From the NCBI GenBank assembly GCA_002372135.1, contig DFIN01000001.1:478-64477 (forward strand): DNA of 64,000 bases. Reading direction: 5' to 3'. Below, piece after piece: positions 3,727-48,032 of this stretch (positions within the stretch are counted from its first letter, which is position 1; each line of letters opens with the position of its first letter). The notes under the pieces are model-generated. The model did not search any database. It had not been told where the DNA came from and saw only the letters and a program-made list of their open reading frames with translations. The position numbers and the translations under genes were made by a program. Source of the stretch: Bacteroidales bacterium UBA3696. GTDB taxonomy: Bacteria > Bacteroidota > Bacteroidia > Bacteroidales > Paludibacteraceae.

Positions 3727-5170
3727 TTAGCGCACTTGCATGCCTTGGGCGTTGTATATCTTTCCGTCAGGGCGGATGATAAACAGCTGCCCGTTATAGA
3801 TCACTTTGCGTGTTTGATCCGTATTGATATCTCGAATCACGTTCTCTATTCCGTCCATGATATCTTCGGGGATAGGTTCAAACTCAGCGGTAAAGCCGAT
3901 GATATTATCATCGACGGCGGGAACATTGAGAAAGGCGTCGTCGGCATACTCGCTGTCGTTCCACGATTTCCAGCCGGCGAAGATGTAGCCTTCTAACTCG
4001 GGGGCGTCGGGTATGGTCACCTTGTCACCGCAGTTGATCACTTCAGCGTAGTAGCCGTTCACCTTGTAGAAACCTTGTGTGGTGAAGTCAAGAGGCTTGG
4101 GATAACCATTGCCATACACACCGTCAAAGACCACGAGTTTTTTGCTGACAGTAATATTGATAGTTTCCGTTTCTCCCGGGCAGATAAACCAAGCATTGCC
4201 GTTGTCGTCTATGCCGCTTTCTAATGCAAATACGACATTAGATGTGTCGCGCAGCCCGGTCTTGACATCTTGCACCAATAGTCGATAATGGATTTTGGCA
4301 GGCAGACCATTGTAGGTGAATGAATAGTGAAATTCCATTCCGTAATGATTCCTGACCATTGCTGTTGACATAGCACCTGATTCGAGTGTTTGCCACGAGA
4401 CACTATCCATACTCTGCTGCAACGCATAAGTAGTCTGTCCTGTTCCATATACCATCATCAATATCGGCATATCCTGCCCGTAACGAATTTCTTTGTTGGC
4501 GGAAAGTGATACTTTGGTAAATCCGCTGACTTCAATAACCAGCAGAGGGAGGCGTGGCAGAATTGCAGGTTAGTTCTTTGAGAAGAGTAGCTTTACTGAA
4601 AGCGTTGAATTCAATATATTTAATTTCGTCCGGGAAGACATACGAGGTGCGTGTATTTCCGGCGGGATAGCAGACTAAAGTATTCTTGTTTTTACTGAGC
4701 AACACATCATCAACAACAGTGAATTCTTCGTTTTCGGCGTCCACGTTGAAAGAAGTAAGACTTGGCATTTGGGCGAATGCGCTCATGCCTATTTCAGTTA
4801 CGGCAGCAGGTATTTGCATTGTTGTCATCGCCGAGCAACCATAAAATGCACCATCACCAATGCGGACAATAGTACTTGGCAAAGATATGGACGGCAGAGT
4901 ACTGCAGCCCGAAAAAGCTTGGTTGCCGATAGTGGTAATGTTACCGCTGAATGTTACAGAGGTGATTTTTTTGTGTGTATTTGCGCCATGGGATATTGTT
5001 TTGCTTAAAATCAGTCATATCTCCCGAGCCGGAGATAGTGAGTACTCCCGTTTGGGTGTCAAAGGTCCAAGTCATTGTTTCGCCGCAGGAGCCGTTGACT
5101 GTCTCGGCGTGGAGGGCGGTTGCTGTCGTCATACCTACGATGAGAGCAAATAGGAAGTAAAGTTTTTCAT
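3727..5170 (-). pseudogene. BspA-type leucine-rich-repeat / InlB-B-repeat surface protein, three frame disruptions
   Basis: Track ORFs 4941-5132, 4532-4882 and 3727-4470 are consecutive pieces. They give LRR motifs (ITSVTFSGNITTIGNQAFSGC, VRIGDGAFYGCS), a Listeria-Bacteroides repeat (GYIFAGW) and the tail RKVIYNGQLFIIRPDGKIYNAQGMQVR. ATG 5168-5170 is out of frame with the signal peptide KLYFLFALIVGMTTATALHA. Confidence 0.7.
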
Positions 5171-5772: not shown

Positions 5773-5873
5773 GAGTTTAAGCCAAAATAGATGATTTTTG
5801 TACAACTTTGGCTGAAACTGTTTTATGAGTTTAAGCCAAAACAAATGAATTTTATACTACTTTGGCTGAAACT
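5773..5873. repeat. two tandem 47-bp units (54-bp period), each an imperfect 13-bp inverted repeat
   Basis: GAGTTTAAGCCAAAATAGATGATTTTTGTACAACTTTGGCTGAAACT (5773-5819) and GAGTTTAAGCCAAAACAAATGAATTTTATACTACTTTGGCTGAAACT (5827-5873). Confidence 0.85.
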
Positions 5874-5944
5874 CATGCTTCTTTTAAGGTAATCCAATAT
5901 GTCAAAGGTCGTTTTGGGTGCTGTTTGCAACCCGTCTTTTGTAC

Positions 5945-5970
5945 CCCTGCGGGAAACCAATCCCGCAGGG
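5945..5970 (-). terminator. hairpin downstream of the 6007 stop (weak terminator candidate)
   Basis: CCCTGCGGGA-aaccaa-TCCCGCAGGG, 10-bp perfect stem. No clear U-run. Confidence 0.3.
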
Positions 5971-6006
5971 CTAATTATATTAGTGCTTAATACACTAACA
6001 TGTGCA

Positions 6007-8076
6007 TTAGCGCAGTTCAGCACCTTGTGCGTTATACAGCGTGCCGTTGCGCTCAATGTACAATACGCCGTTGCGAATGACCTTGCGGCTGTCCGTATCT
6101 GTGCCTGCTTCCACATTCTCCACATCGGTGGGAGTGCCCTCTTCCTCAACGGGTTGGAAAGTGGCGGTGATGACGAGGTCTGACAAAACTATTGAGAACT
6201 CGCGGTCCCAGCCGATGAAGTGATAGCCTTCGATATGAGGAACATCAGGCGGAGTGGCATTCAAGCCTTCTTCAATCTGTTGCGAGGCAAGCAGCGGGTC
6301 GGTGGCTGCCGGTGCACGCTTGGGACTGCCGAGTTGCGTACCGTCTGCGCCATAGAAATTGACGGTGTATTGGGGGGGCAGTGGGCAGTTCTTCAAATAG
6401 AGCGGTGAAACCTATCACATTGTCGCTGATGGCGGGTATGTTGAGATAAGCGGTGTCAGCATAGTCGGTGTTCCATGCTTCCCAACCTTTGAAGATATAG
6501 CCGTCCATAGTGGGGGCTTCGGGCAGCACTTTGCCTCCATAATTAGCAATCTCGGCATAGTATGCGTTGTTGATTTTTGCAAAGCCTTCAGCCGAGAAGT
6601 CAAATGGCTTGGGATAGCCGTTGCCATATACGCCGTCAAAGACGACCATTTTTTGAGCCACATTAATCTCGATAGTTTCTTTCTCGCCCGGGCAAATGAT
6701 GTAGGCAATACCTTTTTCGTCAATGCCGCTATAAAGGTCGCGTGAGGGTTGGTTCACGCGCGCATAGGTTAAGCAAGCACCATTGGCGCCTGACAGTTGG
6801 CTGATACGCACGGTATCATTATATCGTGCAGGGATAATTAACTCACTATCACCCATATTGATGTCGCGGTTGGTGTTCCATGCCATAAGCGATTTTTCCA
6901 TATCGCTTCCCTCAATTTTACTCTTAATGGTCAGGGCATAATACACATCGTATTCAAACGGGTCGCTATACACTCGTTCACCGTTGCAAACGACATAGAA
7001 GCGGAAGGCAAAACCGGGCACGAACGGGCTCTCGTAGTAGTTGCGAAATAGAGCGTAGCGGCTTGTGGCATACGCATTGTGGCTGTGAAGGTCAGCGAGT
7101 CGCCTACCATGGCGCGTGTTTGGCTGTTCTTGAATGCTTTGCTGTATTCAATCGCCATCGGATTGACGCTGTTGGTGTGAACAGTCTGACGGACATTAAA
7201 CTTATAATCACCACCTTGCAGTGTGTAGGTGGCATAGACGCTGAGGTTGCTGTGCACATTGGTGTAGTCGCGACTCCATTTCTTGAACTTCATTCCGTTC
7301 AGCGAAGACGTTTGGGGAGCGGTAGCATCATCGCCACATTCCACTTGTTCGCTCTTCAGCAGTGTGCCGTCCGCATTGACGAAACGCACCGTGTAGGTCT
7401 TTGTCTTGGTGCTAATCCACAGGTTGCAGGCAGGTTGTCTGATGAATCTTCCAAGTCAGTTTGCCCGTCCCCTGAATATGAGCGGTGATGACCATCTGCT
7501 CCCCGTAATTGACAAAGTCGGGGGTAGTAAGCGCAAGGTCAATGAGTGGCATATTAACATCTACATAGTTGTGCAGTCCGGGACGACTAACGCCGGATTG
7601 AATCTCGTATGGAGCCCAAGCCTTGAGCAACTGATCATGGTAATGTGCTTGCACGCAAATGCGAAGGTTCGTATAGCCTTTTTGGTAACACATAGCAATG
7701 GCATCACTGATATTGTCAATGGTAACCGCCCCACCTTTTCGAGTAGATTTATAAAAAGTGTTGACACGCTCAATCAAAGTGTTGGCAAACTGATAGGTTG
7801 ATACGCGTTTGCCATAGTCGTAAGAAACCGTGTCCTTGGAATACTGCGAATTGGACTCAACTTTGAAGAATTGGCTATTGTCGGTACGATATTAGATACG
7901 AACTTCATAATAGCGCTGCAGTTCGACATTCGGATAGAATGTGTCCTCAAAGGTGAGTTGCTTGGTCTTTTCGTCGTACTTGATGCTTTGCAAGTACTTC
8001 GGATAGGGCAGGCTGTTGCCCATGCCGGTGTTTGCCCATAAGCCGACAGCCATGACGGTTGCCGCAATGATACCAT
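6007..8076 (-). pseudogene. paralogous InlB-B-repeat surface protein, at least four frame disruptions
   Basis: Track ORFs 7774-8076, 7412-7777, 6931-7389, 6272-7021 and 6007-6396 tile one gene. 6272-7021 is paralogous to 3727-4470 (VVFDGVYGNGYPKP.DF, GYIFKGW). Tail is RKVIRNGVLYIERNGTLYNAQGAELR. The N-terminal limit is uncertain. Confidence 0.65.
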
Positions 8077-8174
8077 GAATTTCGCCGCAAAGGTAATGAT
8101 ATATTTGGATTAAAATGCAAAAAGTAGAAAGTACTTTGTTTTTAGATTAAGTAATCTATTAGATGTCGGGTTGG

Positions 8175-9059
8175 TTATTCTCTTTGTTGAGTCCGAAACA
8201 ATTTTGGTGTCAACCCGATACGTCGTTTGAAAAAACGGCAGAAGGAAGGTGAGTCGGCATAGCCAAGGAAGTCGGCTATTTGTTGTACAGAAAGGTCAGG
8301 GCGCGTTGAAAGTAGAAACTTAGCTTGCGAGGCAAGGTATTGCTCAATATAGTCGCTGGCAGACAGACCGATTGTGTTTTTGATGATAACAGCGAAATGC
8401 CGTGTCGTCAGGTTGAGCCGGTTTGCATAGAAAGCCACTTCGTGTTGCTCGCGGTAGTGCTTGGCAACAAGAGCGCAGAAATGACTAAATAGTTGGTTGC
8501 TTTTGCTATCTTTATGGTATTGCTCATCTATGTTTGCACGGCAGGCATCCACCATCTCCGCCATGATGTTGGTCTGCATAATGAGCATTTCGTGGCGTTT
8601 AGGGTATTGGGATATAGGTGTGCGACTGATGATATCAATGAGGTCTAACACTTTTGTTATTCGGCTCATGTTGTCTTCATTAATCGTACAGGCAGGAATG
8701 TCGTGAAACTTCGAGTAGTCGTGTGAGAGACGATGTTGCGTCAGTTTGCTGTGAAATGCCGTAGAGTGGACAATGATTGACACATCGTAGTCGGGGCTGC
8801 TCTCTAACGGATGAATGATATGATTGGGGAGTACTACCGCCACTTCGTTGGAAGCAAAGCATATCTCCCGCATATCATATAAGGCTCGTGCCGTACCGCT
8901 ATGGCAGATATAAACCATCAGGTAAGGCGATAGAATATCTTGGTGATAGACAGGGAAACCTTTCACATGCCGCATCACAACCACTTCCGCTGTCCGAATT
9001 GTGCGCTCCATCTCGTCAAATAATTGTTTCGTTTCCATGAAATCGTCATTTTTGAACAC
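8175..9059 (-). CDS. AraC family transcriptional regulator
   Basis: 294 aa with a C-terminal double HTH (LSASDYIEQYLASQAKFLL...IADFLGYADSPSFCRFFKRRIGLTP). Divergent from the 9212 operon. Confidence 0.9.
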   Translation of the reverse strand: MFKNDDFMETKQLFDEMERTIRTAEVVVMRHVKGFPVYHQDILSPYLMVYICHSGTARALYDMREICFASNEVAVVLPNHIIHPLESSPDYDVSIIVHSTAFHSKLTQHRLSHDYSKFHDIPACTINEDNMSRITKVLDLIDIISRTPISQYPKRHEMLIMQTNIMAEMVDACRANIDEQYHKDSKSNQLFSHFCALVAKHYREQHEVAFYANRLNLTTRHFAVIIKNTIGLSASDYIEQYLASQAKFLLSTRPDLSVQQIADFLGYADSPSFCRFFKRRIGLTPKLFRTQQRE

Positions 9060-9211
9060 AAAAGTACTGCTATTTTTGGTTTCTATGCGGTAAAAAGAGA
9101 AAAAATCTTACTTTTGGGTAATAACCTCACACGAATAGTTAATGTTAGTTTGTCGAATAATGTGCATTTTTGCGCCCGATTTTGATAATAATAAGTAAAT
9201 CAAATAATCCT

Positions 9212-9613
9212 ATGAAGAGAAGTCTATTTATTTTGTGGGTAACGGTGTGTGCTTGTGTGATGCAGGCTGTTGATTACCAGTATCTTGTGTTTGTCAACAC
9301 AAACGGCACAACCACTGCACTGTCTGTCAGCGATATGACACTGACGGTGAGTGGTGGCAATCTGGTGGTAGCGAATACTGACGGAACAGAAACGTTCATG
9401 CTGACCGACTTGGCTGCGATGCAATTCTCAAAGGACGGTACTTTTACGGCATTGGACAACGTTATTAACGGCGATGAGCCGGTGGATGTCTATACCATTG
9501 TCGGCACCACGATTGGGCATTTCGACAATTTATTGCAAGCCACTAAGCAACTCCAAGTCGGCGCGTATGTAATCAAACAAGGTCATAACACGCAAAAGAT
9601 TGTGGTAAAATGA
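9212..9613 (+). CDS. small secreted protein with T9SS-like C-terminal tail
   Basis: Signal peptide MKRSLFILWVTVCACVMQA. C-terminus VDVYTIVGTTIGHF...LQVGAYVIKQGHNTQKIVVK resembles a Por-secretion tail. ATGA overlap with the next gene. Confidence 0.7.
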   Translation: MKRSLFILWVTVCACVMQAVDYQYLVFVNTNGTTTALSVSDMTLTVSGGNLVVANTDGTETFMLTDLAAMQFSKDGTFTALDNVINGDEPVDVYTIVGTTIGHFDNLLQATKQLQVGAYVIKQGHNTQKIVVK

Positions 9614-10581
9614 TGAGTAGTAGTAAGTCGAAAGACAATTGTCGTAAGTCAAAAGTCGAGTACATATTATTCTATTGTTTGTTATCCATTGTTCTATGCC
9701 CGACAGCGCTACGCGCGCAAGTGACTATTGCAGATACAACCTATTATGTGTTAATTACATATAGTGGCAATACAGCAACGGTGGAGATGACTGACGATGT
9801 GAAGAGTTACGTTTCGGCAAGTGTAGATGGCGCTCACGTAACTATTACATCTACTGCTTCTGCCGCAGTCAACGAAATCACGTATGGTCTGGCAGGTAGT
9901 ACAACCAACGGCTCGTTCACGTTCAACGGCAGTTACAAGGCTACGGTGGAATTGTTCGGAGTTACCTTGACCAATCCTGCAGGACCGGCTATTGATATTC
10001 AGAACGGCAAGCGTATAGAGATAAGTGCCAAGAAAGAAACTGTTTCTACGCTAACCGACGGCACATCTACCGAAGAGAGTGCATGGAAAGGGGCTCTGTA
10101 TTGCAAAGGACATATTGAGTTTAAGGGAACACTCAATGTCTATGGTAACTATGCTCATGCTATCAAGGCGGGTAAATATATAGAAATGAAAAACTGCACC
10201 ATCAATGTCTATTCGGCGGTGAAGGACGCCATCAACTGCAATCAGTATTTCTTGATGGAGAGTGGTGAAATCAACCTCAGCGGCTTCGGCGACGATGGCA
10301 TACAGGTAGATATGGAGGATAATGACACATCAGCCGAGAACACAGGCAACTTTACGATGACCGGCGGCACGATTAACATCAACATGACCGGTGCTACCGG
10401 AGAGAGCGTCAAAGCCGATGGGAACCAATCCGTGGCGAGTGAAGCCTTGCTGAATCTAACCACAGGAATAGAGGATGTCCAATCCGCCCGCATGCTCGGT
10501 AACAAAGTGCTGCTTGACGGGAAAGTGCTCATCAAGAAAAACAATCAACTTTATACATTAACAGGCTATGAAATCCAATAA
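9610..10581 (+). CDS. Cthe_2159-like carbohydrate-binding beta-helix protein (secreted)
   Basis: Signal peptide. Repeated GG.I.I....DGI(Q/K) beta-helix rungs. N-terminal region is paralogous to 10568-12562 and 15034-16023. Tail is NKVLLDGKVLIKKNNQLYTLTGYEIQ. Confidence 0.75.
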   Translation: MMSSSKSKDNCRKSKVEYILFYCLLSIVLCPTALRAQVTIADTTYYVLITYSGNTATVEMTDDVKSYVSASVDGAHVTITSTASAAVNEITYGLAGSTTNGSFTFNGSYKATVELFGVTLTNPAGPAIDIQNGKRIEISAKKETVSTLTDGTSTEESAWKGALYCKGHIEFKGTLNVYGNYAHAIKAGKYIEMKNCTINVYSAVKDAINCNQYFLMESGEINLSGFGDDGIQVDMEDNDTSAENTGNFTMTGGTININMTGATGESVKADGNQSVASEALLNLTTGIEDVQSARMLGNKVLLDGKVLIKKNNQLYTLTGYEIQ

Positions 10582-12562
10582 TATGAGAAAATCGTTATTA
10601 ACTATTTGTCTCCTTTGGGGTACATTCTGCGGGGTGGCTCAGACCCTGAATATACAAGTAGGCAATGTAACGTATCAGTTCCCCGCTTCCGAAGCAGGCG
10701 TGATGCCTTTTTCGGACGGCACAACCCTTACCGTGATGGGCAAAGCCTTCACGCTGAGCGAAGTGGATGCCATGTATGTGGACGAAACGGAAGTAACAGA
10801 CAACTTGGTTCAGATTACGTATAGTTCGTCGTCTGCTACCATCCTCGTAGCAGGCAATGTGGCGCAGTATGTAACGCCGTCCCTTAACGGTGCGCATGTT
10901 ACCATTGCCCAAAGCAATACTACCGCCGTGAATGATGATGAGATAACCTACCAACTCACCGGCACTACCTCCAATGGTTCATTCTCCCTCTCCGGCTCAT
11001 ACAAGTGTACAGTGTCATTAGCAGGTGTAACGATGACCAATCCGAGCGGCGCAGCCATCAACATAACCAACTCCAAGCGCATCCAACTCAGTGCGAAGAA
11101 AAATACGACCAACACCCTTGCTGACTGTGCTTCCGGCTCGCAGAAAGCCTGTATATACAGCAAAGGACAGTTGCAACTGCAAGGCAACGGTACGCTCAAT
11201 GTGGTAGGTAACACCAAACATGGTATAAAGAGTGCGTCCTACATATCCGTTAAGAACTTGACGCTGAACATTACCTCCACTGTGGGCGATGGCATCAACT
11301 GCGAAGAGTATATGGAAATCAAAAGCGGTATGATTACGCTCTCCGGCATAGGGGACGATGGTATCCAGTGTGACCTTGGAGGCACCACCTCCACAGGCAT
11401 CACCACCGACCACGAAGACGAGGACACCGGCAATGTCTATATATCCGGCGGAAATATTACGATTACAGTTACGGCTACCGCAGCCAAGGGAATAAAGTGT
11501 GAAGGTGATCTGTATGTTACCGACGGAACGCTCAATGTTACGACCTCAGGCGCGGGCGAGTGGGATAGCGACGATAGTGAAACAAAAGCCGCCGCCGGAC
11601 TGAGTGCGGACGGCAATATGGCTATTTCCGGCGGTACGCTGACCCTCAGAGCAACCGGCTCCGGCGGAAAAGGACTGAAGTGTGACGGCACACTGGCAGT
11701 GAGCGATAGTGCCGTAATCATAGTTACCACGACGGGCGGACTTTATTACAACAATGGTTCCACCGAGAATACCAACTATACCGGCAATACCGATAACATC
11801 AGCAGTAACTATTATTCGTCGCCCAAAGGAATCAAAGCCGCAGGAGCGATTACTATTTCCGGGGGTAAGATATATGTTACCACTTCCGGTCGTAATGGTG
11901 AAGGTATTGAGTCCAAATCAACGCTTGATATAACCGGCGGTGAGGTGGCTGTAACAGCGTATGATGATGCCATCAACGCTGCCTCGCATCTTACCATCAG
12001 CGGCGGCTATGTCTATGCCTACGCCACCAACAACGACGGAATAGACGCCAACGGCAACTGCTACATCAAAGGCGGTCTTATTTATGCCATAGGTGCGTCT
12101 TCGCCTGAAGTAGCCATTGATGCCAACACGGAAGGTGGTTACAAACTGTATGTACAAGGCGGCACGCTCGTGGCTATTGGCGGTTTGGAGAATAATGCAA
12201 GTATCACGCAAACGTGCTATTCGGTAGGTTCTTCTTCCGGCGGTGGCGGCAGATGGTTCGCTCCGGCAGCAGGCCCCGGTGGTGGAGGCCCCGGTGGCAA
12301 TGGCGGTAGTTCATGGACTGCCAATACTTGGTATGCCCTCACCGTAGGAAGCACCACTTTCGCCTTCAAAACACCGAGCAGCGGCGGTACCGCCATGGTC
12401 GTTTCCGGCAGTACCACACCTACGCTCCAATCGGGCGTAACAGCTTCCGGCACAAGCATTTTTAACGGGGTAGGCTATTATCCCGCTACCGTTTCCGGTG
12501 GCTCAAGTGTAAGTTTGAGTTCCTATTCCGGCGGCGGCATGGGTGGTGGCTTTGGTTGGTAA
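10568..12562 (+). CDS. Cthe_2159-like carbohydrate-binding beta-helix protein with Gly/Ser/Pro-rich C-terminus
   Basis: 664 aa, signal peptide, many beta-helix rungs (ISGGNITITV...AKGIKCEGDL, ISGGKIYVTT...GEGIES). C-terminus is GGGGRWFAPAAGPGGGGPGGNGG...YSGGGMGGGFGW. Confidence 0.8.
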   Translation: MKSNNMRKSLLTICLLWGTFCGVAQTLNIQVGNVTYQFPASEAGVMPFSDGTTLTVMGKAFTLSEVDAMYVDETEVTDNLVQITYSSSSATILVAGNVAQYVTPSLNGAHVTIAQSNTTAVNDDEITYQLTGTTSNGSFSLSGSYKCTVSLAGVTMTNPSGAAINITNSKRIQLSAKKNTTNTLADCASGSQKACIYSKGQLQLQGNGTLNVVGNTKHGIKSASYISVKNLTLNITSTVGDGINCEEYMEIKSGMITLSGIGDDGIQCDLGGTTSTGITTDHEDEDTGNVYISGGNITITVTATAAKGIKCEGDLYVTDGTLNVTTSGAGEWDSDDSETKAAAGLSADGNMAISGGTLTLRATGSGGKGLKCDGTLAVSDSAVIIVTTTGGLYYNNGSTENTNYTGNTDNISSNYYSSPKGIKAAGAITISGGKIYVTTSGRNGEGIESKSTLDITGGEVAVTAYDDAINAASHLTISGGYVYAYATNNDGIDANGNCYIKGGLIYAIGASSPEVAIDANTEGGYKLYVQGGTLVAIGGLENNASITQTCYSVGSSSGGGGRWFAPAAGPGGGGPGGNGGSSWTANTWYALTVGSTTFAFKTPSSGGTAMVVSGSTTPTLQSGVTASGTSIFNGVGYYPATVSGGSSVSLSSYSGGGMGGGFGW

Positions 12563-12564
12563 GT

Positions 12565-13362
12565 ATGCAAACCATAGAAGATATCATTCGCCTGTTTGAG
12601 CCGATTGGTTTGTCGCAAATGGAAAGCGTCAAACTCATGAACCGTATCGACACAAAGTATGTGGTTTCGCTGTCGTCTCTCCCGCTTATTCTGCAAGCAG
12701 CCCAAGCGGATTATTACGCACAGGAGATTGATGGTAAGCGGATTGCGACCTATGACACCATGTATTACGATACGGACTCTTTGGACATGTACATCCGGCA
12801 CCATGACCGCCAACTGGCACGCCAGAAAATTCGCGTCCGTCAGTATGTGGATAGTAACCTCACGTTCTTGGAAATAAAACGTAAAAACAACAAAGGGCGT
12901 ACCAACAAGAAGCGGATTGTGGTACCCGGGTTTGACCTCACTGCCGAAACTCCTTCCGTCCTCAAACACAAGAAAAAAGAGGATGAGGCAGTAACGGTAG
13001 AGAGTTTTATTGACCTCAAAAGCCGGTACCATTGGAGCGACATTACTCCCCACTTATGGACCAAGTTCCACCGCATTACTTTGGTGAACAAGGCGAAAAC
13101 CGAACGCCTGACCATCGATTTGGATTTGCTGTGGGAGAACGTGGTTAGCAAGGAGTCGAAAATCTATCCCGACTTGGTCATCATCGAACTCAAGCGGGAT
13201 GGAAATGTGCCCAGCCGTATGACGGATATAATGCTTTCCTACCGAATCAAACCGCTGAAAATAAGCAAATATTGTATTGGTACGGCATTGACAACTCCCG
13301 GACTGAAACGAAACCGGTTCAAAAAGAAAATTCGTTCCATCGAAAAATTATTGAATCATTAA
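12565..13362 (+). CDS. VTC-domain (polyphosphate polymerase domain) protein
   Basis: RIDTKYVV, YDTMYYDTDSLDMY, RQKIRVRQY, FLEIKRKNNKGRTNKKR, RLTIDLDL, IIELKRDG and ISKYCIG match the bacterial VTC/CYTH-like tunnel family pattern. No signal peptide. Confidence 0.8.
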   Translation: MQTIEDIIRLFEPIGLSQMESVKLMNRIDTKYVVSLSSLPLILQAAQADYYAQEIDGKRIATYDTMYYDTDSLDMYIRHHDRQLARQKIRVRQYVDSNLTFLEIKRKNNKGRTNKKRIVVPGFDLTAETPSVLKHKKKEDEAVTVESFIDLKSRYHWSDITPHLWTKFHRITLVNKAKTERLTIDLDLLWENVVSKESKIYPDLVIIELKRDGNVPSRMTDIMLSYRIKPLKISKYCIGTALTTPGLKRNRFKKKIRSIEKLLNH

Positions 13363-13387
13363 ATCTTTGAATCATTAAATCACCAAT

Positions 13388-14143
13388 ATGTTATTTCAAG
13401 TTGATTTAGCCAATCCTACATTGGAGTTTTTGGAGAATGACCCGAGTATAGCTGCCCGTTTTGGTACGAGCGATAGTATTTCCTATATCATGCACTCGTT
13501 TGCCGACTGGTTGGGCGTAAGTGAAAACCTCATTACCATGCCGTTGATGTTCCTCTTCAACCTGTTGGTTTCTTGGGTTCTCATCTATTGCATCTATTAT
13601 CGTTATAGTCGCCGCCGCGATTACTATGTGCAGTTTATGCTGTTTTCAAGCGGTATGTTCTTGTTGCTGTGGCTGATGCAGATACTGGATATTCAAACAG
13701 GTTTTGTGCTCGGTCTGTTTGCCATCTTCGGCATGATTCGTTACCGCACGGAAACAGTGCCTATTCGCGAGATGAACTATATGTTCCTCATTATCGCTCT
13801 GTCGGTAATTAACTCGCTTAGTCTCAAGGCAGACGGTTTGGCGTGGTATTTGTTGCTTTTTGCAAATATACTGATGTTGGCTTTGGCATGGGGCTTTGAA
13901 CTATGGAACGGACGCAAACGCCAATCCACCAAGATTGTTCTCTATGAGAAAATCGAGAATATCAAACCCGAGAACCGTGAGGCACTAATTGCTGATTTGC
14001 AGGATCGTACAGGGCTGAAAGTGATAGATATAGAAATCGGGCATATTGATTTTCTGCGCGATGTGGCATACATCAAAATGACCTACCCCTTGGAAAAAGG
14101 CAAAACGGTCAATAGTATTGATTTGATAACGAAATTCAAATAA
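13388..14143 (+). CDS. DUF4956 family membrane protein
   Basis: Four to five predicted TM helices plus a soluble C-terminal domain. IFGMIRYRTETVPIREMNYMFLIIALSVIN resembles the DUF4956 core. The family commonly neighbours VTC-domain genes. Confidence 0.7.
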   Translation: MLFQVDLANPTLEFLENDPSIAARFGTSDSISYIMHSFADWLGVSENLITMPLMFLFNLLVSWVLIYCIYYRYSRRRDYYVQFMLFSSGMFLLLWLMQILDIQTGFVLGLFAIFGMIRYRTETVPIREMNYMFLIIALSVINSLSLKADGLAWYLLLFANILMLALAWGFELWNGRKRQSTKIVLYEKIENIKPENREALIADLQDRTGLKVIDIEIGHIDFLRDVAYIKMTYPLEKGKTVNSIDLITKFK

Positions 14144-14991
14144 TGAGTATCTCTAACAGCATAAGCGGTCGAGCAGCGAAGTGTTCTAATAGGTCGCTTT
14201 CAGCCGTTCTAATAGCGATAGCAGTCTTATTGGTTCTGCCCGCAAAGGCTTGGGACTATGACAGCGAGGCAGAAACAACCTCCCGTAGTGCTCAATGGCG
14301 TATGGAAGCCGATTTTACCAAGAAGTGGAAAAACGGTCTTCGGTTGGGCATCAACGAGGAGTTGCGTTTTGACCTCTACAATTCGGCAAATGGGGCTGCT
14401 TTCCGCAAGTCTTATACCACCCTGTCTTTTGGGTATGCGCCCATTCAGTATGTCAAGTTGGATGTCGGCTACTCGCTCAAAGTCCTCGGACCGGACAGCA
14501 CTTGGTCTGCCACCAAGAGAGCCGATATCAACGAATATCTGCGCCACCGCGTCTTTTTCACCGTTACCGCTTCCTATAAGTTTGACTATGCCAAACTCTA
14601 TCTTCGCGAGCGCGTGCTGATGGAAGCGCGTACCGATAGTGTCAATCCGCTGGAGAAAAATCAAGTAGATTGGCAGTTGCGCTCTCGTTTAGGTGCAGAC
14701 TTTTTAGTGCCCGGCAAACCCTATAAACCCTATCTGTGGGGGGAGATTGCCAATACACTTAATGCCCCTGAATATCAGCAGAAAAACGGACATCAGTTCA
14801 TCTGTAATGTCCGCGCACAAGCCGGAATAAAGTGGCGCGTGTCAAAACTCAGTTCACTGGATTTCTACTATCGATTCACATACGGATACGACCGAGATAT
14901 CAATATCACCAAGAAAAAAGGATATATCCAACTGACCGAAGAAAAACTGTATCAACATTCTATCGGCGTGGCGTATAATTTGGATTGGTAA
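14143..14991 (+). CDS. putative outer-membrane beta-barrel protein (DUF2490-like)
   Basis: Signal peptide (LIAIAVLLVLPAKA), alternating-hydrophobic strands, terminal aromatic (...IGVAYNLDW). TAATG overlap with the upstream gene. Confidence 0.6.
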   Translation: MSISNSISGRAAKCSNRSLSAVLIAIAVLLVLPAKAWDYDSEAETTSRSAQWRMEADFTKKWKNGLRLGINEELRFDLYNSANGAAFRKSYTTLSFGYAPIQYVKLDVGYSLKVLGPDSTWSATKRADINEYLRHRVFFTVTASYKFDYAKLYLRERVLMEARTDSVNPLEKNQVDWQLRSRLGADFLVPGKPYKPYLWGEIANTLNAPEYQQKNGHQFICNVRAQAGIKWRVSKLSSLDFYYRFTYGYDRDINITKKKGYIQLTEEKLYQHSIGVAYNLDW

Positions 14992-15033
14992 TGGGTGAAT
15001 AGTAAATTATGAACTTTGAAAAAGAAGTGAAAA

Positions 15034-16023
15034 ATGAACAAAATTTGGAAAATACTACCGTTGCTATTTCTCTCGGTGTTATTTATAGGTTGTGAGAACA
15101 AGAGCGAAGGTTCAGCAGCGTCTGATGTGACCAATAACGGGGACGATGCGTCCGACTTGGTGGAAAACGAGATGTGGAATAAGACGATAGACATCGTATG
15201 GAATGGAACAGACGTAACCGTAACAGGGAGTGCGGACGGCGTAAAGGTATCCCATTCAAACGGCTATGTGACCATCAACTCCAAGGCGGAGAAAGTGGAA
15301 TACATAGTTAGCGGAGCAGGAACAGGGCAACTCAGTATTTACGGCAACTACAAATACAAACTGCTCTTGGACGGACTCACGCTCGCTTGTCCTGACGGAC
15401 CGGCTATCAACAGTCAGTGCCCCAGAACGTGTTATGCCGTCTTACAAGGTACAAATATACTATCGGATGGTTCCTCCTATGCCGAATCAGAGGAAGACCG
15501 GAAAGCCGCCTTCTTCAGCGAAGGGAGGATTTGTTTCTCCGGTTCCGGTTCGTTGGAAGTTATCGGCAATTGCAAGCATGCCATCGCCAGCGATTATTAC
15601 ATTCGCTTGTGTTCCGGTACGGGGACGCTTAACCTGACGGCGAAAGCGAGCGATGGACTTCATACCAACCATGGCGTGATAATCAATGACGGTACACTAA
15701 CCATTAATGCCGCTGACGATGGCATCCAATGCGAAGCATCCGGCGTAGTGATTACAGGCGGAATAATCAATATTAACAGCAAATACAAATGTATCAAGAC
15801 GGAGGGTAACCTATCAATCTCCGGCGGAACGATTACGGCTGTTGCAAGCGCGACATCCTCATCCGACGGAACACCCGAAGGTATTGAAGCCAAAGGACAA
15901 ATCACTATTTCCGGCGGTTCGTCCGTTTCATTGTCTGCTTATAGTGGCGGCAATGCGGGAGGTGGATTCCCCGGTGGAAATAATCCTGGTGGGGGACATA
16001 AACCGGGCGGAGGTCCTAAGTAA
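15034..16023 (+). CDS. Cthe_2159-like beta-helix lipoprotein with Gly-rich C-terminus
   Basis: Lipobox LSVLFIGC. Paralogous to the 9610 and 10568 genes. C-terminus SLSAYSGGNAGGGFPGGNNPGGGHKPGGGPK. Confidence 0.75.
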   Translation: MNKIWKILPLLFLSVLFIGCENKSEGSAASDVTNNGDDASDLVENEMWNKTIDIVWNGTDVTVTGSADGVKVSHSNGYVTINSKAEKVEYIVSGAGTGQLSIYGNYKYKLLLDGLTLACPDGPAINSQCPRTCYAVLQGTNILSDGSSYAESEEDRKAAFFSEGRICFSGSGSLEVIGNCKHAIASDYYIRLCSGTGTLNLTAKASDGLHTNHGVIINDGTLTINAADDGIQCEASGVVITGGIININSKYKCIKTEGNLSISGGTITAVASATSSSDGTPEGIEAKGQITISGGSSVSLSAYSGGNAGGGFPGGNNPGGGHKPGGGPK

Positions 16024-16061
16024 TGGGGTAAAATCAAATCATTAAAAACAGTAAACAGACG

Positions 16062-16490
16062 ATGAAAAAATATCTTTTTCTTGTACTAACTACATTGCTC
16101 GCTGTGCCGGCTGTGGCTCAAAGTCTGCTGACACGCGAGCAACTCGCCAAACGCGAGAAACGCAAGAACCTGACGGTCAAAGAATGGAACACAGACGATA
16201 AGACAAAGACCCGTTGGTTAGACCGTATCAAGGTGTATGACAGCCAAGGCAGGTGCGTGGAGGAAATAGAGTATGCTACCTATGGTCAGAAATGGCGCGT
16301 TACCAGCACGTATGATGACGTAACGGGCAAAGTGGTGGAAGAAGTGGAATACAATGACCGCAATCGACCGGTCCGTATCCGCAAGTATGAATGGAACGAA
16401 GACGGCACGAAAGCCAAACAGTACAACTACCTACCGAACGGCAAACTCTTTTCCGTGAAAGTGTTTGAGTATATTTTCTCTGAGAAATAG
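16062..16490 (+). CDS. small secreted repeat protein (hypothetical)
   Basis: Signal peptide MKKYLFLVLTTLLAVPAVAQ. Repeated hairpin-like units (VEEIEY, VEEVEY, IRKYEW, VKVFEY). Confidence 0.6.
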   Translation: MKKYLFLVLTTLLAVPAVAQSLLTREQLAKREKRKNLTVKEWNTDDKTKTRWLDRIKVYDSQGRCVEEIEYATYGQKWRVTSTYDDVTGKVVEEVEYNDRNRPVRIRKYEWNEDGTKAKQYNYLPNGKLFSVKVFEYIFSEK

Positions 16491-16518
16491 GCTTTTTTTC
16501 CGTACCTATTGCGTGATT

Positions 16519-16545
16519 GCGGGGCAAATTCTACTTTTGCCCCGC
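16519..16545 (+). promoter_or_regulatory. 10-bp inverted repeat enclosing a TAnnTTTG -7 box upstream of the TonB-dependent receptor
   Basis: GCGGGGCAAA (16519-16528) / TTTGCCCCGC (16536-16545). TACTTTTG at 16532-16539, 36 nt before ATG 16575. Confidence 0.4.
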
Positions 16546-16574
16546 ATATTTTTATTCATAGATACACAACGGAT

Positions 16575-18968
16575 ATGGAAAAGTATGTTACGTTACTTAT
16601 CTTTGGTTGCATTTGTATCTCCCTTTCGGCGCAGAACAAAAAGTTGCTATCACCCGCTTCATACGTTGTCAGTGGCTATGTGTCCGATATCGAATCCGGC
16701 GAACGACTGATAGGGGCAGCCGTATATGATACGGTTTCGCACCAAGGTGCCGTAACCAATACGGCGGGTTTTTATACACTCACTATTCCTGCCGGTCAAT
16801 CGTGTGTATTGGTGGCTACGTATGTGGGGTATCAGCCTGCTGAATGGTGTGCACCTGCCGATACCAACCAAACTCACCATTTTGTGTTACATAGTGCGGC
16901 TTCCTTACAGGAAGTGGTCGTCAAAGGGCATAGGTCGTTGTCCGCACCCGATAATGTGCAAATGAGTGCCGTGGAAGTGCCGGTGAGCCAGATCCTCTCC
17001 ATTCCTGCCATAGGCGGCGAAGTGGATGTGCTCAAAGCCATACAATTGCTGCCCGGTGTGCAAAACGGCGGGGAAGGCAGTGCCGGTATCTATGTGCGCG
17101 GTGGAGGACCCGATGAGAATTTAATGATATTGGATGGCGCACCGCTCTACAATATCAACCATGCGCTGGGGATGTTCTCCGTCTTTAACGCCGATGCCAT
17201 CAAGAGCGTTACACTCTATAAGGGCAATTTTCCTGCCCGATTCGGCTCACGGCTCAGTTCGGTGGTGGACGTATGGCAGAAAGACGGCAATAAGTCATTT
17301 TGGCATGGCAGTGTATCTGCCGGACTTATCTCTGCCAAAGCCTATGTGGAAGGACCTATCTTGTCCAAAACAACATTTCATATCTCGGCACGTCGTACTT
17401 ATTTTGACTTGTTTACCGCTCCGATGATTGCTGCCGTGGCTGCCTCGCGTAATGATTTATCCCTTTGGGCAGGCTATTATTTCTACGATGTGAACGCCAA
17501 AGTCAGTCATACCTTCTCGGACGCGGATAGATTGACCGTAGGCGTATATACCGGTTCGGATGTGGAATATATGCGGGTAGGCAGAAAGAACCCTGCCAAA
17601 GACAGCAATAATACCTACAAGATGGGCATGCGCTACACGTGGGGGAACACCTTAGCCGTTGCCGATTGGCAGCATTGCTTCAATCATCGTCTGTTTCTCC
17701 ATACCCGTGCCTATTACAGCGGCTACCGCAGTGTACTCAAGCAGACACTCAATGTCGTTTCTGCCGATAATCAACAAGCAATCTTTGACCAAGGTATGGG
17801 CTACAACAGTCAGATTAACGATGTGTCGCTTTCGTCCCACTTGGAATATACCCCCGGCAGCAGGCATCAAGTACGAGCCGGATTGGAATATGTGTATCAC
17901 CATTTTCGACCGGCGGTACAAAGTACGTTTTTGATGGCTGTGGGCGACTCGACGAATGTGCTTTTGGATATGGATACCACGATTCATAACCATTCCTTAC
18001 ACGGGCATGAAGCGTCGGCGTATGTAGAAGATACATGGACACCCTGTTCATGGTACAGGCTCAACTACGGAGCACGCGTGGGAATGTACGGGATTCGCGG
18101 TAAAGTCTATCCCTCTTTTGAACCGCGTATAGGGATGCGTTTCCTCTTGCATCGTGATGTGGCGTTCAAACTCAGTTATTCCTATATGTCGCAGTATGTC
18201 CATCTGTTGAGCAACAGTTCGCTCTCGTTGCCAAGCGATATGTGGGTGCCCGTAACGCGTTCCGTACCGCCTATGCGCTCTATGCAGGTTGCGGCAGGAA
18301 TGAGTTATAACCTGCTTGACCAAGTCGAACTGAGCGTGGAAGGGTACTACAAGCGAAGTCTTAATCTCATTGAGTATAAGGATGGGGCTTCGTATTGGGG
18401 CTATACGGAAGATTGGGAGAAACAGATTTCTATCGGCAATGGCAATAGTTATGGGGTCGAAGTGCTTGCCCAGCGCACGGTAGGACCCGTTACAGGCTGG
18501 ATTGGCTATACATGGAGTCGGACCATGCGACAATTTGACGACATCAACTATGGCAAACCGTTTCATGCGAAATACGACCGCGAACACGACATCAGTATCA
18601 CGCTCCAATACCAAATCACTCCGCGTATTGATATTGCTGCCACGTGGGTCTATGCCACAGGCAATCGAGGTACTATCGTTACGCAAACCTATTTAGACCC
18701 CGTTGCAGGAGTCGTGGAGTATTTCAACGAACGGAACGGTTATGTTCTCCCCGATTATCACAGGTTAGATTTGGCTGCCAATTTTCATTTCCCGTTGAAA
18801 CATTTGCTCAACGGGCAGAAGGCGGAGCATGTACTCAACGTCAGTTGCTACAACGTCTATTGCCACCTCAATCCGATGTTTGTCCATACCGACCCCTATA
18901 CCGGCAAAATGTATCAAATCACACTTTTCCCTATTTTGCCCAGTATCAGTTATCAATTCTCATTCTAA
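16575..18968 (+). CDS. TonB-dependent receptor (CarboxypepD_reg-like N-terminal domain, plug, barrel)
   Basis: VVSGYVSDIESGERLIGAAVY (carboxypeptidase regulatory-like), plug motifs (LPGVQNGGEGSAGIYVRGGGPDENLMILDGAPLYN), terminal ...ISYQFSF. Confidence 0.9.
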   Translation: MEKYVTLLIFGCICISLSAQNKKLLSPASYVVSGYVSDIESGERLIGAAVYDTVSHQGAVTNTAGFYTLTIPAGQSCVLVATYVGYQPAEWCAPADTNQTHHFVLHSAASLQEVVVKGHRSLSAPDNVQMSAVEVPVSQILSIPAIGGEVDVLKAIQLLPGVQNGGEGSAGIYVRGGGPDENLMILDGAPLYNINHALGMFSVFNADAIKSVTLYKGNFPARFGSRLSSVVDVWQKDGNKSFWHGSVSAGLISAKAYVEGPILSKTTFHISARRTYFDLFTAPMIAAVAASRNDLSLWAGYYFYDVNAKVSHTFSDADRLTVGVYTGSDVEYMRVGRKNPAKDSNNTYKMGMRYTWGNTLAVADWQHCFNHRLFLHTRAYYSGYRSVLKQTLNVVSADNQQAIFDQGMGYNSQINDVSLSSHLEYTPGSRHQVRAGLEYVYHHFRPAVQSTFLMAVGDSTNVLLDMDTTIHNHSLHGHEASAYVEDTWTPCSWYRLNYGARVGMYGIRGKVYPSFEPRIGMRFLLHRDVAFKLSYSYMSQYVHLLSNSSLSLPSDMWVPVTRSVPPMRSMQVAAGMSYNLLDQVELSVEGYYKRSLNLIEYKDGASYWGYTEDWEKQISIGNGNSYGVEVLAQRTVGPVTGWIGYTWSRTMRQFDDINYGKPFHAKYDREHDISITLQYQITPRIDIAATWVYATGNRGTIVTQTYLDPVAGVVEYFNERNGYVLPDYHRLDLAANFHFPLKHLLNGQKAEHVLNVSCYNVYCHLNPMFVHTDPYTGKMYQITLFPILPSISYQFSF

Positions 18969-18980
18969 TACTTGTCTTCT

Positions 18981-19991
18981 ATGTCTCTTTTGCATAAACT
19001 ATTCTGCTTGGAAATCGTTGCTGTCGCTCTTTGCGCGTGTGAGGAGATGTTTTACCACGAAGTGGATTTTCGCGTGGAAGGCGGTCAGCCTAAGTTGGTG
19101 CTTCTGGCTGAGAGCAGGGTAGGGAATATACCCGCTTATCAGGTTACTCATACCAAACTGCTGGATGAAAATACCGGCTCGCAACCGTATTATTTATTGA
19201 TGGATGCCGATGTGCGCTTTCGCCGTAACGGCGGTGAATGGATTCGGCTTTATACGCTGAATGATACGAGTATCTATTGCCTGACCGAAAACGGCGCATT
19301 GCCCCCCGCTATTGGTCCGTTGGATACCATCGAGTTGAAAGTGTCTCATCCCGATTATCCTTCGCTCTACGCAAGGCAAGTGATGCCCGATTATGCCTAT
19401 GCCACTCTCACGCAATACGAAAAGCAGGACAACAATTCGGTACTTCTAACCCTGCATATTGAACCCTATCGTGGCAATGCGGACGATATGATTGCCATTC
19501 GTTCGCAGATGTGGAATGTGTATTCCGTGGACTCCGTATTCGCCAAGGCGCAAAACATGCAAGCCGGTGCCTACTACGGCGCTGACGAAACGTACAGCCT
19601 CTTTTTTCCGGCGGCGTTGTTGTCTCGTTCGTTGGATATACAACTCTTTGCAGATGGAGGAAAGCCCTTTTATACAGAAACGGATACAATCTTCCTGACT
19701 CCGAGAAATCTGAGTCTGACCTGCTCGGTTCTTACTCGCGACGGGTACTTGAATGAACTTTTCCGGCGCACTTATACCCAAACCGAATTGGATGTGCCGA
19801 GTTGGGTACCTCGGCAGAGTGGCAACTGGATGCAAATCATCTTGGAAGGGGTTACCGAAACTTTAGGACAACAGGAATTGCTGTCCGTCTATACCAACGT
19901 TGAGGGCGGGTTAGGCTATCTGTTCGGATGGAGTTCAATGCCTGTCGGCTGTCCGAATACGTTGTACCATGTACCTTCACGCAGGATGTAA
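18981..19991 (+). CDS. DUF4249-like lipoprotein (receptor partner)
   Basis: Lipobox VALCAC. The position immediately after a CarboxypepD_reg-type TonB receptor is typical of DUF4249. C-terminal EGGLGYLFGW. Confidence 0.65.
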   Translation: MSLLHKLFCLEIVAVALCACEEMFYHEVDFRVEGGQPKLVLLAESRVGNIPAYQVTHTKLLDENTGSQPYYLLMDADVRFRRNGGEWIRLYTLNDTSIYCLTENGALPPAIGPLDTIELKVSHPDYPSLYARQVMPDYAYATLTQYEKQDNNSVLLTLHIEPYRGNADDMIAIRSQMWNVYSVDSVFAKAQNMQAGAYYGADETYSLFFPAALLSRSLDIQLFADGGKPFYTETDTIFLTPRNLSLTCSVLTRDGYLNELFRRTYTQTELDVPSWVPRQSGNWMQIILEGVTETLGQQELLSVYTNVEGGLGYLFGWSSMPVGCPNTLYHVPSRRM

Positions 19992-47990: not shown

Positions 47991-48032
47991 ATGTGCACGG
48001 TGCACGCTACTAACTCAAAAAACAATATACGT

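Follow-up and report, generated by a model that had tools for sequence, protein, structure and literature searches.

A Bacteroidales operon joining a Vtc4-like tunnel enzyme, a DUF4956 membrane protein and an outer-membrane barrel, and its possible part in a trans-envelope polyphosphate pathway

Why is a Vtc4-like enzyme of the bacterial cytoplasm encoded together with proteins of the inner membrane, the outer membrane and the secreted fraction? The question is raised by a 64,000-nucleotide stretch of DNA from the rumen organism Bacteroidales bacterium UBA3696 (Paludibacteraceae; assembly GCA_002372135.1, contig DFIN01000001.1, positions 478 to 64,477 of the forward strand), which is called the window here. 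Positions 9212-16490 of the window hold eight intact open reading frames (ORFs) on the plus strand, with an AraC-family gene divergent from them on the opposite strand. In bacteria, the synthesis of polyphosphate (polyP) is credited almost wholly to PPK1 and PPK2, and polymerases of the VTC type are regarded as eukaryotic. A first-pass annotation made from the sequence alone had suggested that a phosphate polymer is made in the cytoplasm, passed across the envelope and held at the surface; the export step is an inference from the gene content. The present analysis indicated that a core of two genes, for a Vtc4-like tunnel enzyme and a DUF4956 protein, is widespread in bacteria and that the operon is its Bacteroidales form, to which a DUF2490 barrel, a small exported repeat protein and exported Cthe_2159 beta-helix proteins have been added. 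The synthesis of polyP at the membrane is well supported. A trans-envelope polyP pathway is the best reading of the whole operon, and it is put forward tentatively. The genes that carry the argument are as follows.

12565..13362, plus strand: cytoplasmic Vtc4-like triphosphate-tunnel enzyme, predicted polyphosphate polymerase, 265 aa (Pfam VTC)
13388..14143, plus strand: DUF4956 inner-membrane protein with five transmembrane (TM) helices and a cytoplasmic beta-alpha-beta-beta (ACT-like) domain
14143..14991, plus strand: DUF2490 outer-membrane beta-barrel, 282 aa (Pfam PF10677, E 3.2e-14)
16062..16490, plus strand: sm2, small exported beta-hairpin-repeat protein, 142 aa, with a signal peptide

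The tunnel enzyme matched the Pfam VTC family (PF09359) over profile positions 1-233 of 235, with an E value of 1.5e-32 and 113.5 bits against a cut-off of 23. Every Pfam assignment in the operon lay above the gathering score, which is the curated threshold, and the domains named in the first-pass annotation (AraC, VTC, DUF4956, three Cthe_2159 and the barrel) were all correct by Pfam. The enzyme had neither a signal peptide nor a TM segment and carried a net charge of +15 (family mean +12). It was the sole product of the operon without an export signal or a membrane segment, all others having an N-terminal hydrophobic signal. No matches were obtained when the single sequence was searched against the PDB sequences. 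The profile of 106 diverse bacterial homologues, 36-50% identical to the window protein, matched only the catalytic domains of yeast Vtc2 and Vtc4 (E 6.5e-5 and 1.3e-4, respectively). The AlphaFold2 (AF2) model of the enzyme had a predicted local distance difference test (pLDDT) value of 94.2 and a predicted template modelling (pTM) score of 0.90. In the Foldseek search of this model against the PDB, the top 13 matches were all Vtc4, Vtc3 or Vtc2 chains, and the best was 3g3r_B of Vtc4 (E 5.9e-12, template modelling score 0.62).

The active site was compared residue by residue with that of Vtc4. A cryo-electron microscopy (cryo-EM) preprint on VTC gives K200, R264, R266, K281, Y359, R361, E426, S457 and K458 as the triphosphate/Mn2+ ligands, and K458 as the single ligand that is substituted in Vtc2 and Vtc3, which are inactive. 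By alignment, K31, R90, R92 and K105 of the window protein correspond to K200, R264, R266 and K281 of Vtc4, and R170, E208, S234 and K235 to R361, E426, S457 and K458. The mapping was verified by counting the chain numbering of 3g3q (chain position +185). Eight of the nine ligands, the K458 equivalent included, were invariant in all 106 homologues, in which residue conservation was scored. A structure lacking the catalytic tunnel had been named beforehand as a refutation; a confident VTC fold and the ligands were both present, and the outcome therefore favours the finding. Vtc4-like enzymes whose active site is intact are common among bacteria, the matches at E<=0.001 forming 3,932 clusters at 50% identity. 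From the conserved ligands, the VTC protein is predicted to act as a polymerase.

The genomic context of the enzyme was studied in a scan of one genome per species, seeded with a 16-sequence VTC alignment. At least 80 loci came from this one scan, and the set is biased to close relatives. The locus analysis comprised ORF calling, phmmer and de novo clustering of the ORFs within 7 kb of the VTC gene (81 loci); a subset of 63 loci had at least 3 kb on both sides of it and is referred to as full-flank loci. Antisense ORF "families" produced by the clustering lay on the opposite strand inside real genes and were dropped as spurious. All scanned loci were labelled as Bacteroidales or related metagenome-assembled genomes (MAGs), save one MAG labelled Bifidobacteriaceae, and the nearest genomes were rumen Paludibacteraceae MAGs with VTC protein identity up to 85%. 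The DUF4956 gene stood directly downstream of the VTC gene in 63/63 full-flank loci (77/81 overall), and a DUF2490-family gene came next in 62/63. The median spacing was a gap of 21 nt between VTC and DUF4956 and an overlap of 4 nt between DUF4956 and DUF2490. Such an arrangement goes far beyond chance, as the core order is kept at 62-63 of the 63 loci even with identities down to 45% (VTC) and 14-25% (DUF2490). Chance adjacency of the core genes was excluded by this synteny.

The other partners were less constant. An sm2 gene was present at 38/63 full-flank loci and 47/81 overall, usually immediately upstream of VTC; the first-pass annotation had counted the last gene of the operon without singling it out, yet this gene is a conserved partner of the core. 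One or more Cthe_2159 genes were found at 35/63 loci. The AraC gene was adjacent at 4/63 full-flank loci (5/81 overall), in the closest relatives only, and LytTR/histidine-kinase pairs stood at some of the loci without it. AraC was rejected as a defining component on this count. De novo clustering of the 81 loci gave no further consistently linked gene family besides those named. From the partner counts, the conserved unit is (sm2)-VTC-DUF4956-DUF2490, and the beta-helix genes and the regulator are variable. The expected synteny was therefore confirmed for the VTC-DUF4956-DUF2490 core; the Cthe_2159 genes turned out to be accessory, and the proposed AraC link did not extend beyond the closest relatives.

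The VTC-DUF4956 pair also occurs outside Bacteroidales, in loci taken from annotated megaplasmids (jointly L086 5608-8418, L087 6397-8709, L088 4390-8430 and L089 4397-6723). The order was CotH-VTC-DUF4956 in Deinococcus, DUF4956-VTC-phytase-like esterase in Aminobacter and Shinella, and DUF4956-VTC-inorganic phosphate (Pi) transporter-phytase-like esterase in Nitratireductor. The two genes are thus adjacent in other phyla in either order, with DUF4956 first in the alphaproteobacteria.

The membrane partner matched Pfam PF16316 with an E value of 1.2e-45 and 155.7 bits against a cut-off of 30.6. Its AF2 model (pLDDT 78.5) contained helices at residues 46-74, 77-100, 104-120, 126-147 and 153-175, followed by the strands and helix of the C-terminal domain at 179-234. 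Among 92 homologues, the loops that follow TM1, TM3 and TM5 had lysine plus arginine counts of 4.5, 3.0 and 2.0, respectively, compared with about 0-0.5 for the N-terminus and the remaining loops. The topology is N-out/C-in, because the positive charges are concentrated in the loops after TM1, TM3 and TM5 (positive-inside rule). The most conserved element of the family was GLFAIF..RYRTE..REM (109-129), in the cytoplasmic turn between TM3 and TM4. Docking of the +15 enzyme on the cytoplasmic face of DUF4956 is plausible. One further member of the family, P0391, was much longer than the norm at 384 aa and scored 488 bits compared with about 350 for others; it may be a duplication or fusion.

The third protein of the core scored 53.5 bits with DUF2490 against a cut-off of 29.8. 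All 69 downstream orthologues matched DUF2490 (69/69), and 22 of them matched OMP_b-brl too. The window protein had a signal peptide and a C-terminal aromatic beta-signal ending in ...YNLDW. The profile weakly resembled porins and OmpG (E 0.0015-0.1) and more faintly KdgM (E 0.39), and the protein has the size of 12-14-strand monomeric channels like OmpG and KdgM. Conserved R-x-R pairs (RHR, RER and RSR) occurred on three consecutive predicted strands, where the alternation of residues places them on the polar face; the pattern would fit either an anion track or a buried charge network. In TCDB, DUF2490 is listed as a putative porin of unknown function (TC 1.B.81).

These results can be arranged into a pathway. 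At the inner face of the cytoplasmic membrane, the tunnel enzyme would dock on the RYRTE/REM turn and the ACT-like domain of DUF4956 and polymerise polyP from ATP. An oligomer of DUF4956 might then let the chain leave the cytoplasm as it grows, either by itself or in a complex with cations. The DUF2490 barrel and sm2 would carry polyP to or through the outer membrane, where the beta-helix proteins might bind or process it. The fold, the conserved active site, the topology of DUF4956 and the gene linkage are results of the analysis, whereas we infer the activity, the docking and the translocation across either membrane from the constant association of an enzyme of the cytoplasm with envelope and secreted proteins.

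Several observations weigh against the trans-envelope pathway. In the enzyme, the ligand Y359 was not kept: the window protein has F168, and the family has F in 83/106 and Y in 23/106 members, an equivalence that is less certain than the others, as it lies in a low-scoring stretch of the alignment. The Y359F mutation lowers polyP in yeast (cryo-EM preprint). Moreover, an extra Asp, D29 (104/106), stands two residues before K31, where the ExExK motif of hydrolases has its second Glu and Vtc4 has Thr. In DUF4956, the conserved charges lay at helix ends and the membrane core conserved only Asn, Ser and Gly; without a conserved basic lining, it is not what one would expect of a simple polyanion pore. 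Among the PDB entries, the VTC cryo-EM chains included, the DUF4956 profile found no relative, and the fold search with the model gave no significant match (best E 0.12). Neither SPX nor DUF202 was matched by any operon protein. No similarity of DUF4956 to the DUF202-type channel of eukaryotic VTC, or to any solved transporter, was detectable, and the parallel with the eukaryotic channel drawn in the first-pass annotation did not hold. The architecture of DUF4956, a polytopic membrane part with an ACT-like domain, resembles that of the regulator MgtC. In the outer membrane, a 2026 preprint described a buried salt-bridge network in 238/2,789 AlphaFold models of DUF2490; such a network, if present in this protein, could mean a plugged barrel. 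The Cthe_2159 proteins were acidic (family mean net charge -18), and their direct binding of a polyanion would need bridging cations because they are strongly acidic. Cthe_2159 genes were missing from 28/63 loci. Furthermore, a Bacteroidota-like contig carried a lone VTC gene, 37% identical, without DUF4956 (L083 8001-8750), which adjoined a beta-lactamase-family gene and a SusC/SusD pair; because of this gene, not every bacterial VTC enzyme has a membrane partner. Single-gene deletions in Streptococcus intermedius gave no clear aggregation or Pel phenotype (2024 preprint).

A dedicated machine that secretes polyP across both membranes, by way of DUF4956 and the DUF2490 barrel, is doubtful. 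PolyP might instead be made by a membrane-tethered enzyme and stay in the cytoplasm, with DUF4956 as its anchor or regulator, similar to MgtC, in which a ligand sensed by the ACT-like domain turns the polymerase on or off; no export would take place, and the envelope genes would be co-regulated since polyP or phosphate status controls an envelope process. We consider this unlikely. It agrees with the five TM helices and the beta-alpha-beta-beta domain of DUF4956, the sole fold resemblances of which, weak and non-significant, were to ACT or ferredoxin-like domains, with the lack of a basic pore lining and with the Pi transporter adjoining the pair in Nitratireductor. The S. intermedius preprint also assigned the homologue there to MgtC/ACT, by CDD in the case of MgtC, and proposed that polyP stays cytoplasmic. 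However, homology with MgtC was tested and not found: the MgtC family (PF02308) gave no match to DUF4956 at E<=10, and hhalign of the 92 DUF4956 sequences with E. coli YhiD gave a probability of 0.1%, a weak test with a single-sequence template (as a control, YhiD itself matched MgtC at 5e-39). Cytoplasmic synthesis also leaves unexplained the translational coupling of DUF4956 to a barrel of the outer membrane at 62/63 loci, and the secreted proteins that always accompany the pair in unrelated phyla.

In a variant of the export reading, the exported polyP would not be the end product. It would donate phosphoryl groups or energy to reactions beyond the cytoplasm, which have no ATP at hand. CotH kinases, phytase-like esterases and Cthe_2159 proteins would then use or trim it, for instance in phosphorylating a surface protein or polysaccharide. 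The partners do vary by phylum yet are all secreted, CotH kinase and phytase-like esterase are phosphate-chemistry families, and the K, N, D, E, H patch conserved in the N-terminal turns of VTC-adjacent Cthe_2159 members would suit an active or binding site. Such a donor role is improbable, as it requires the export step as well and as Cthe_2159 genes are lacking at the loci counted above; moreover, we know of no Cthe_2159 member that is an enzyme. Finally, the tunnel enzyme might be a hydrolase or cyclase, as most triphosphate-tunnel enzymes of bacteria are (tripolyphosphatase, ATPase), working with DUF4956 in phosphate scavenging or signalling. The next-best folds after VTC were the hydrolytic tunnel enzymes E. 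coli YgiF (E 5.7e-9), AtTTM3 and thiamine triphosphatase, D29 and the Phe at the Y359 position point the same way, and phytase-like esterase and Pi transporter genes adjoin the pair in alphaproteobacteria. On the other hand, the VTC profile was matched end to end and the CYTH profile gave no match at E<=0.01. The ExExK region reads R27-I-D29-T-K31, in which the first Glu is Arg, as in Vtc4, the K458 equivalent is invariant, and every VTC chain outranked all hydrolases in the fold search. A hydrolase or cyclase is thus quite improbable, and the trans-envelope polyP pathway is kept as the best reading.

The remaining features of the operon and its borders are listed here. Signal peptides and the lipobox were called by inspection and hydropathy.

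8175..9059, minus strand: AraC-family regulator (Pfam HTH_18 E 3.6e-17, HTH_AraC E 9e-9)
9060..9211, no strand: putative divergent promoter region, with three TAnnTTTG matches within 152 nt
9212..9613, plus strand: sm1, small exported protein, 133 aa, with a signal-peptide-like N-terminus
9610..10581, plus strand: Cthe_2159 beta-helix protein A, exported, 323 aa (PF14262 E 2.2e-32, signal peptide)
10568..12562, plus strand: Cthe_2159 beta-helix protein B, exported, 664 aa, with a Gly-rich C-terminal part (PF14262 E 1.3e-58, signal peptide)
15034..16023, plus strand: Cthe_2159 beta-helix lipoprotein C, 329 aa (PF14262 E 2.5e-42, lipobox LFIG-C20)
16518..16546, plus strand: intrinsic-terminator-like hairpin, 11-bp stem with 7 G-C pairs, followed by the T-run TATTTTTATT

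The three Cthe_2159 proteins are paralogues, as the first-pass annotation had stated together with their export: A and B were 47% identical over 250 aa, C was about 31% identical to both, and N-terminal signals were seen by inspection in all three. The gene order had to be corrected, since the beta-helix genes do not all follow the barrel; two precede VTC and one follows the barrel. The founding member of the family reportedly binds cellulosic and pectic polymers. Protein B matched the solved Cthe_2159 structure 4PEU/4PHB in sequence (E 4e-10), and a lipobox-like motif was present in 25/53 members near VTC genes. The proposal that the polymer is held at the surface was not supported, as A and B have plain signal peptides and no recognisable sorting domain. 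No type IX secretion system (T9SS) or other sorting domain was found in the C-termini of the beta-helix and small proteins. The sm1 protein belonged to no Pfam or NCBIfam family, and its homologues stood directly upstream of Cthe_2159 genes in 7 related loci. The sm2 family had weak DUF2963, RHS_repeat and MORN_2 matches only. Apart from this, a C-terminal motif of about 38 aa (..VIRDGQVLIEKNGKTYNALGAEV..) was shared by protein A (10462-10575, plus strand), a minus-strand ORF of the window (6013-6129) and a protein of a relative (L001 5727-5840, minus strand), the last being a Pfam-less signal-peptide protein of 435 aa. The motif, which protein A thus shares with other putative surface proteins, was 44-51% identical across its carriers and matched no T9SS sorting-domain model; it looks like a sorting or anchoring tag.

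The tight packing of the eight genes was verified by reading the sequence. The sm1 and protein A genes overlap in ATGA at 9610-9613, and the protein A and B genes share 14 nt at 10568-10581, an overlap that turns into a 1-nt gap should protein B really begin at its second Met (10583). There follow a 2-nt gap ahead of the VTC gene (12563-12564), a 25-nt gap between VTC and DUF4956 (13363-13387) and a TAATG junction with a 1-nt overlap between DUF4956 and DUF2490 at 14143. These junctions agree with the first-pass annotation. The last two intergenic gaps were 42 nt and 38 nt. TAnnTTTG is the -7 consensus of Bacteroidetes promoters. In the divergent region it occurred at 9059-9066 (minus strand), 9071-9078 and 9109-9116 (both plus strand), that is, 3 matches in 152 nt compared with about 0.14 expected from the window density of 59 per 64 kb on both strands. 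A promoter function of this region is suggested by these boxes. Because one box overlaps the annotated GTG start of the AraC gene, the true start may be the downstream Met8. Another TAnnTTTG box lay at 12510-12517 (plus strand), within the 3' end of the protein B gene and 48 nt before the start of VTC, and could serve the conserved VTC-DUF4956-DUF2490 core as an internal promoter. A sigma-70 promoter scan gave 27 sites against 20 expected, with a consensus ill-suited to a Bacteroidetes genome. The Rfam scan of the window gave no regulatory RNA and one tRNA only.

At the other end, the terminator-like hairpin stood 28 nt past the last stop codon and was the strongest such site within 8000-20500. 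The TonB-dependent receptor and DUF4249 genes downstream were considered as operon members and rejected; they form a separate unit, because the terminator intervenes and none of the 81 loci (0/81) links them with VTC. The receptor ORF is listed at 16509-18968 (plus strand), and as listed it crosses the hairpin because its TTG start precedes the terminator. Its real start is probably the ATG at 16575 (MEKYVTLL..., with a signal peptide).

Elsewhere in the window, a single ORF of 3871 aa at 47991-59606 (plus strand) contained at least 13 divergent InlB B-repeat (Flg_new_2) domains (E 1e-124) together with Lcl_C and Listeria-Bacteroides repeat domains, and is probably a giant surface adhesin. At 5800-8100 on the minus strand, a series of ORFs that overlap one another in different frames (6007-6396, 6272-7021, 6931-7389, 7412-7777 and 7774-8076) had no Pfam matches; it is probably one large surface-protein gene with frameshifts, either a pseudogene or a product of assembly errors. 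In two neighbouring minus-strand ORFs, 1609-2886 and 3727-4470, a weak match to the T9SS C-terminal sorting domain (E 7e-4) was seen along with a Listeria-Bacteroides repeat, which points to T9SS cargo proteins in the organism.

The operon matters since it shows a Vtc4-like enzyme that in Bacteroidales is firmly linked to a protein of the inner membrane and a barrel of the outer one. If export is true, it would explain how bacteria place polyP, a host-active polyanion, outside the cell, and it would be a second, non-homologous solution to the coupling of polyP synthesis with membrane passage. Gut and rumen Bacteroidales, Bacteroides thetaiotaomicron included, would have a surface or released polyP pool. 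In several phyla, VTC-DUF4956 would then be the long-sought PPK-independent source of extracellular bacterial polyP, and the VTC/acidocalcisome system of eukaryotes would have in it a prokaryotic counterpart or forerunner. In this connection, a 2026 preprint found PPK-independent, extracellular polyP in Bacillus cereus, called its extracellular origin unclear and found no VTC4 homologue there. The question is open to direct test, as B. thetaiotaomicron is genetically tractable and carries BT3498-BT3499, which are annotated as adjacent DUF4956 and DUF2490 genes.

As the first-pass annotation had supposed, no characterised bacterial VTC/DUF4956 system was found in the literature. The pair itself had already been noticed, however. 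With CotH, it has been described as an accessory group beside Gram-positive Pel operons, it appears, partly misannotated, in NELoc-2 of C. perfringens (CP4_0460-0465), and in S. intermedius, where the genes were deleted, the 2024 preprint recognised the VTC-like fold, the catalytic residues and the MgtC/ACT-like membrane protein. The Bacteroidales module with its outer-membrane barrel, sm2 and beta-helix paralogues was previously undescribed in the literature searched. The Gram-positive cluster, cotH-"polyphosphate polymerase"-DUF4956(-DUF4832), for example SIR_1592-1594 of S. intermedius, has the same pair with a secreted partner. Unlike this cluster, the window operon had no CotH or Pel domain by Pfam; in the 81 Bacteroidales loci, de novo clustering gave no conserved CotH-like family, no direct scan with a CotH profile having been run. 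DUF2490, sm2 and Cthe_2159 as partners were reported for the Gram-positive cluster in none of the papers found.

Compared with the eukaryotic VTC complex (yeast Vtc4/Vtc3 or Vtc2/Vtc1), the operon has the same catalytic fold, triphosphate/Mn2+ ligands and K458 equivalent, and in each case a membrane partner is either encoded with the enzyme or assembled with it. Unlike the eukaryotic complex, the operon lacks the SPX sensor domain and the DUF202-type three-helix transmembrane domain, its enzyme is a separate soluble protein of 265 aa, and DUF4956 is unrelated to the eukaryotic partner in sequence and fold. The enzyme also differs from Vtc4 in the Phe for Y359 and in the extra tunnel-lining Asp. 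Furthermore, the bacterial operon adds an outer-membrane barrel and exported proteins. The MgtC family (Salmonella MgtC, E. coli YhiD) shares about five TM helices followed by a small cytoplasmic ACT-like domain with DUF4956, whereas no sequence or profile similarity was detected and MgtC has no tunnel-enzyme partner. With PPK1 and PPK2 the operon shares the expected product, polyP from a nucleoside triphosphate, but not the fold. Genes for envelope proteins do not accompany those for PPK enzymes, and the polyP of these enzymes is deposited in the cytoplasm. In synthase-dependent secretion (cellulose by Bcs, alginate, poly-N-acetylglucosamine (PNAG) and Pel), the proteins are unrelated to those of the operon, the polymer here would be inorganic, and the operon has no tetratricopeptide scaffold or glycosyltransferase. 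By analogy, the logic of the two is nevertheless alike, with a polymerase at the cytoplasmic face, a passage through the inner membrane and an outer-membrane beta-barrel encoded in one operon.

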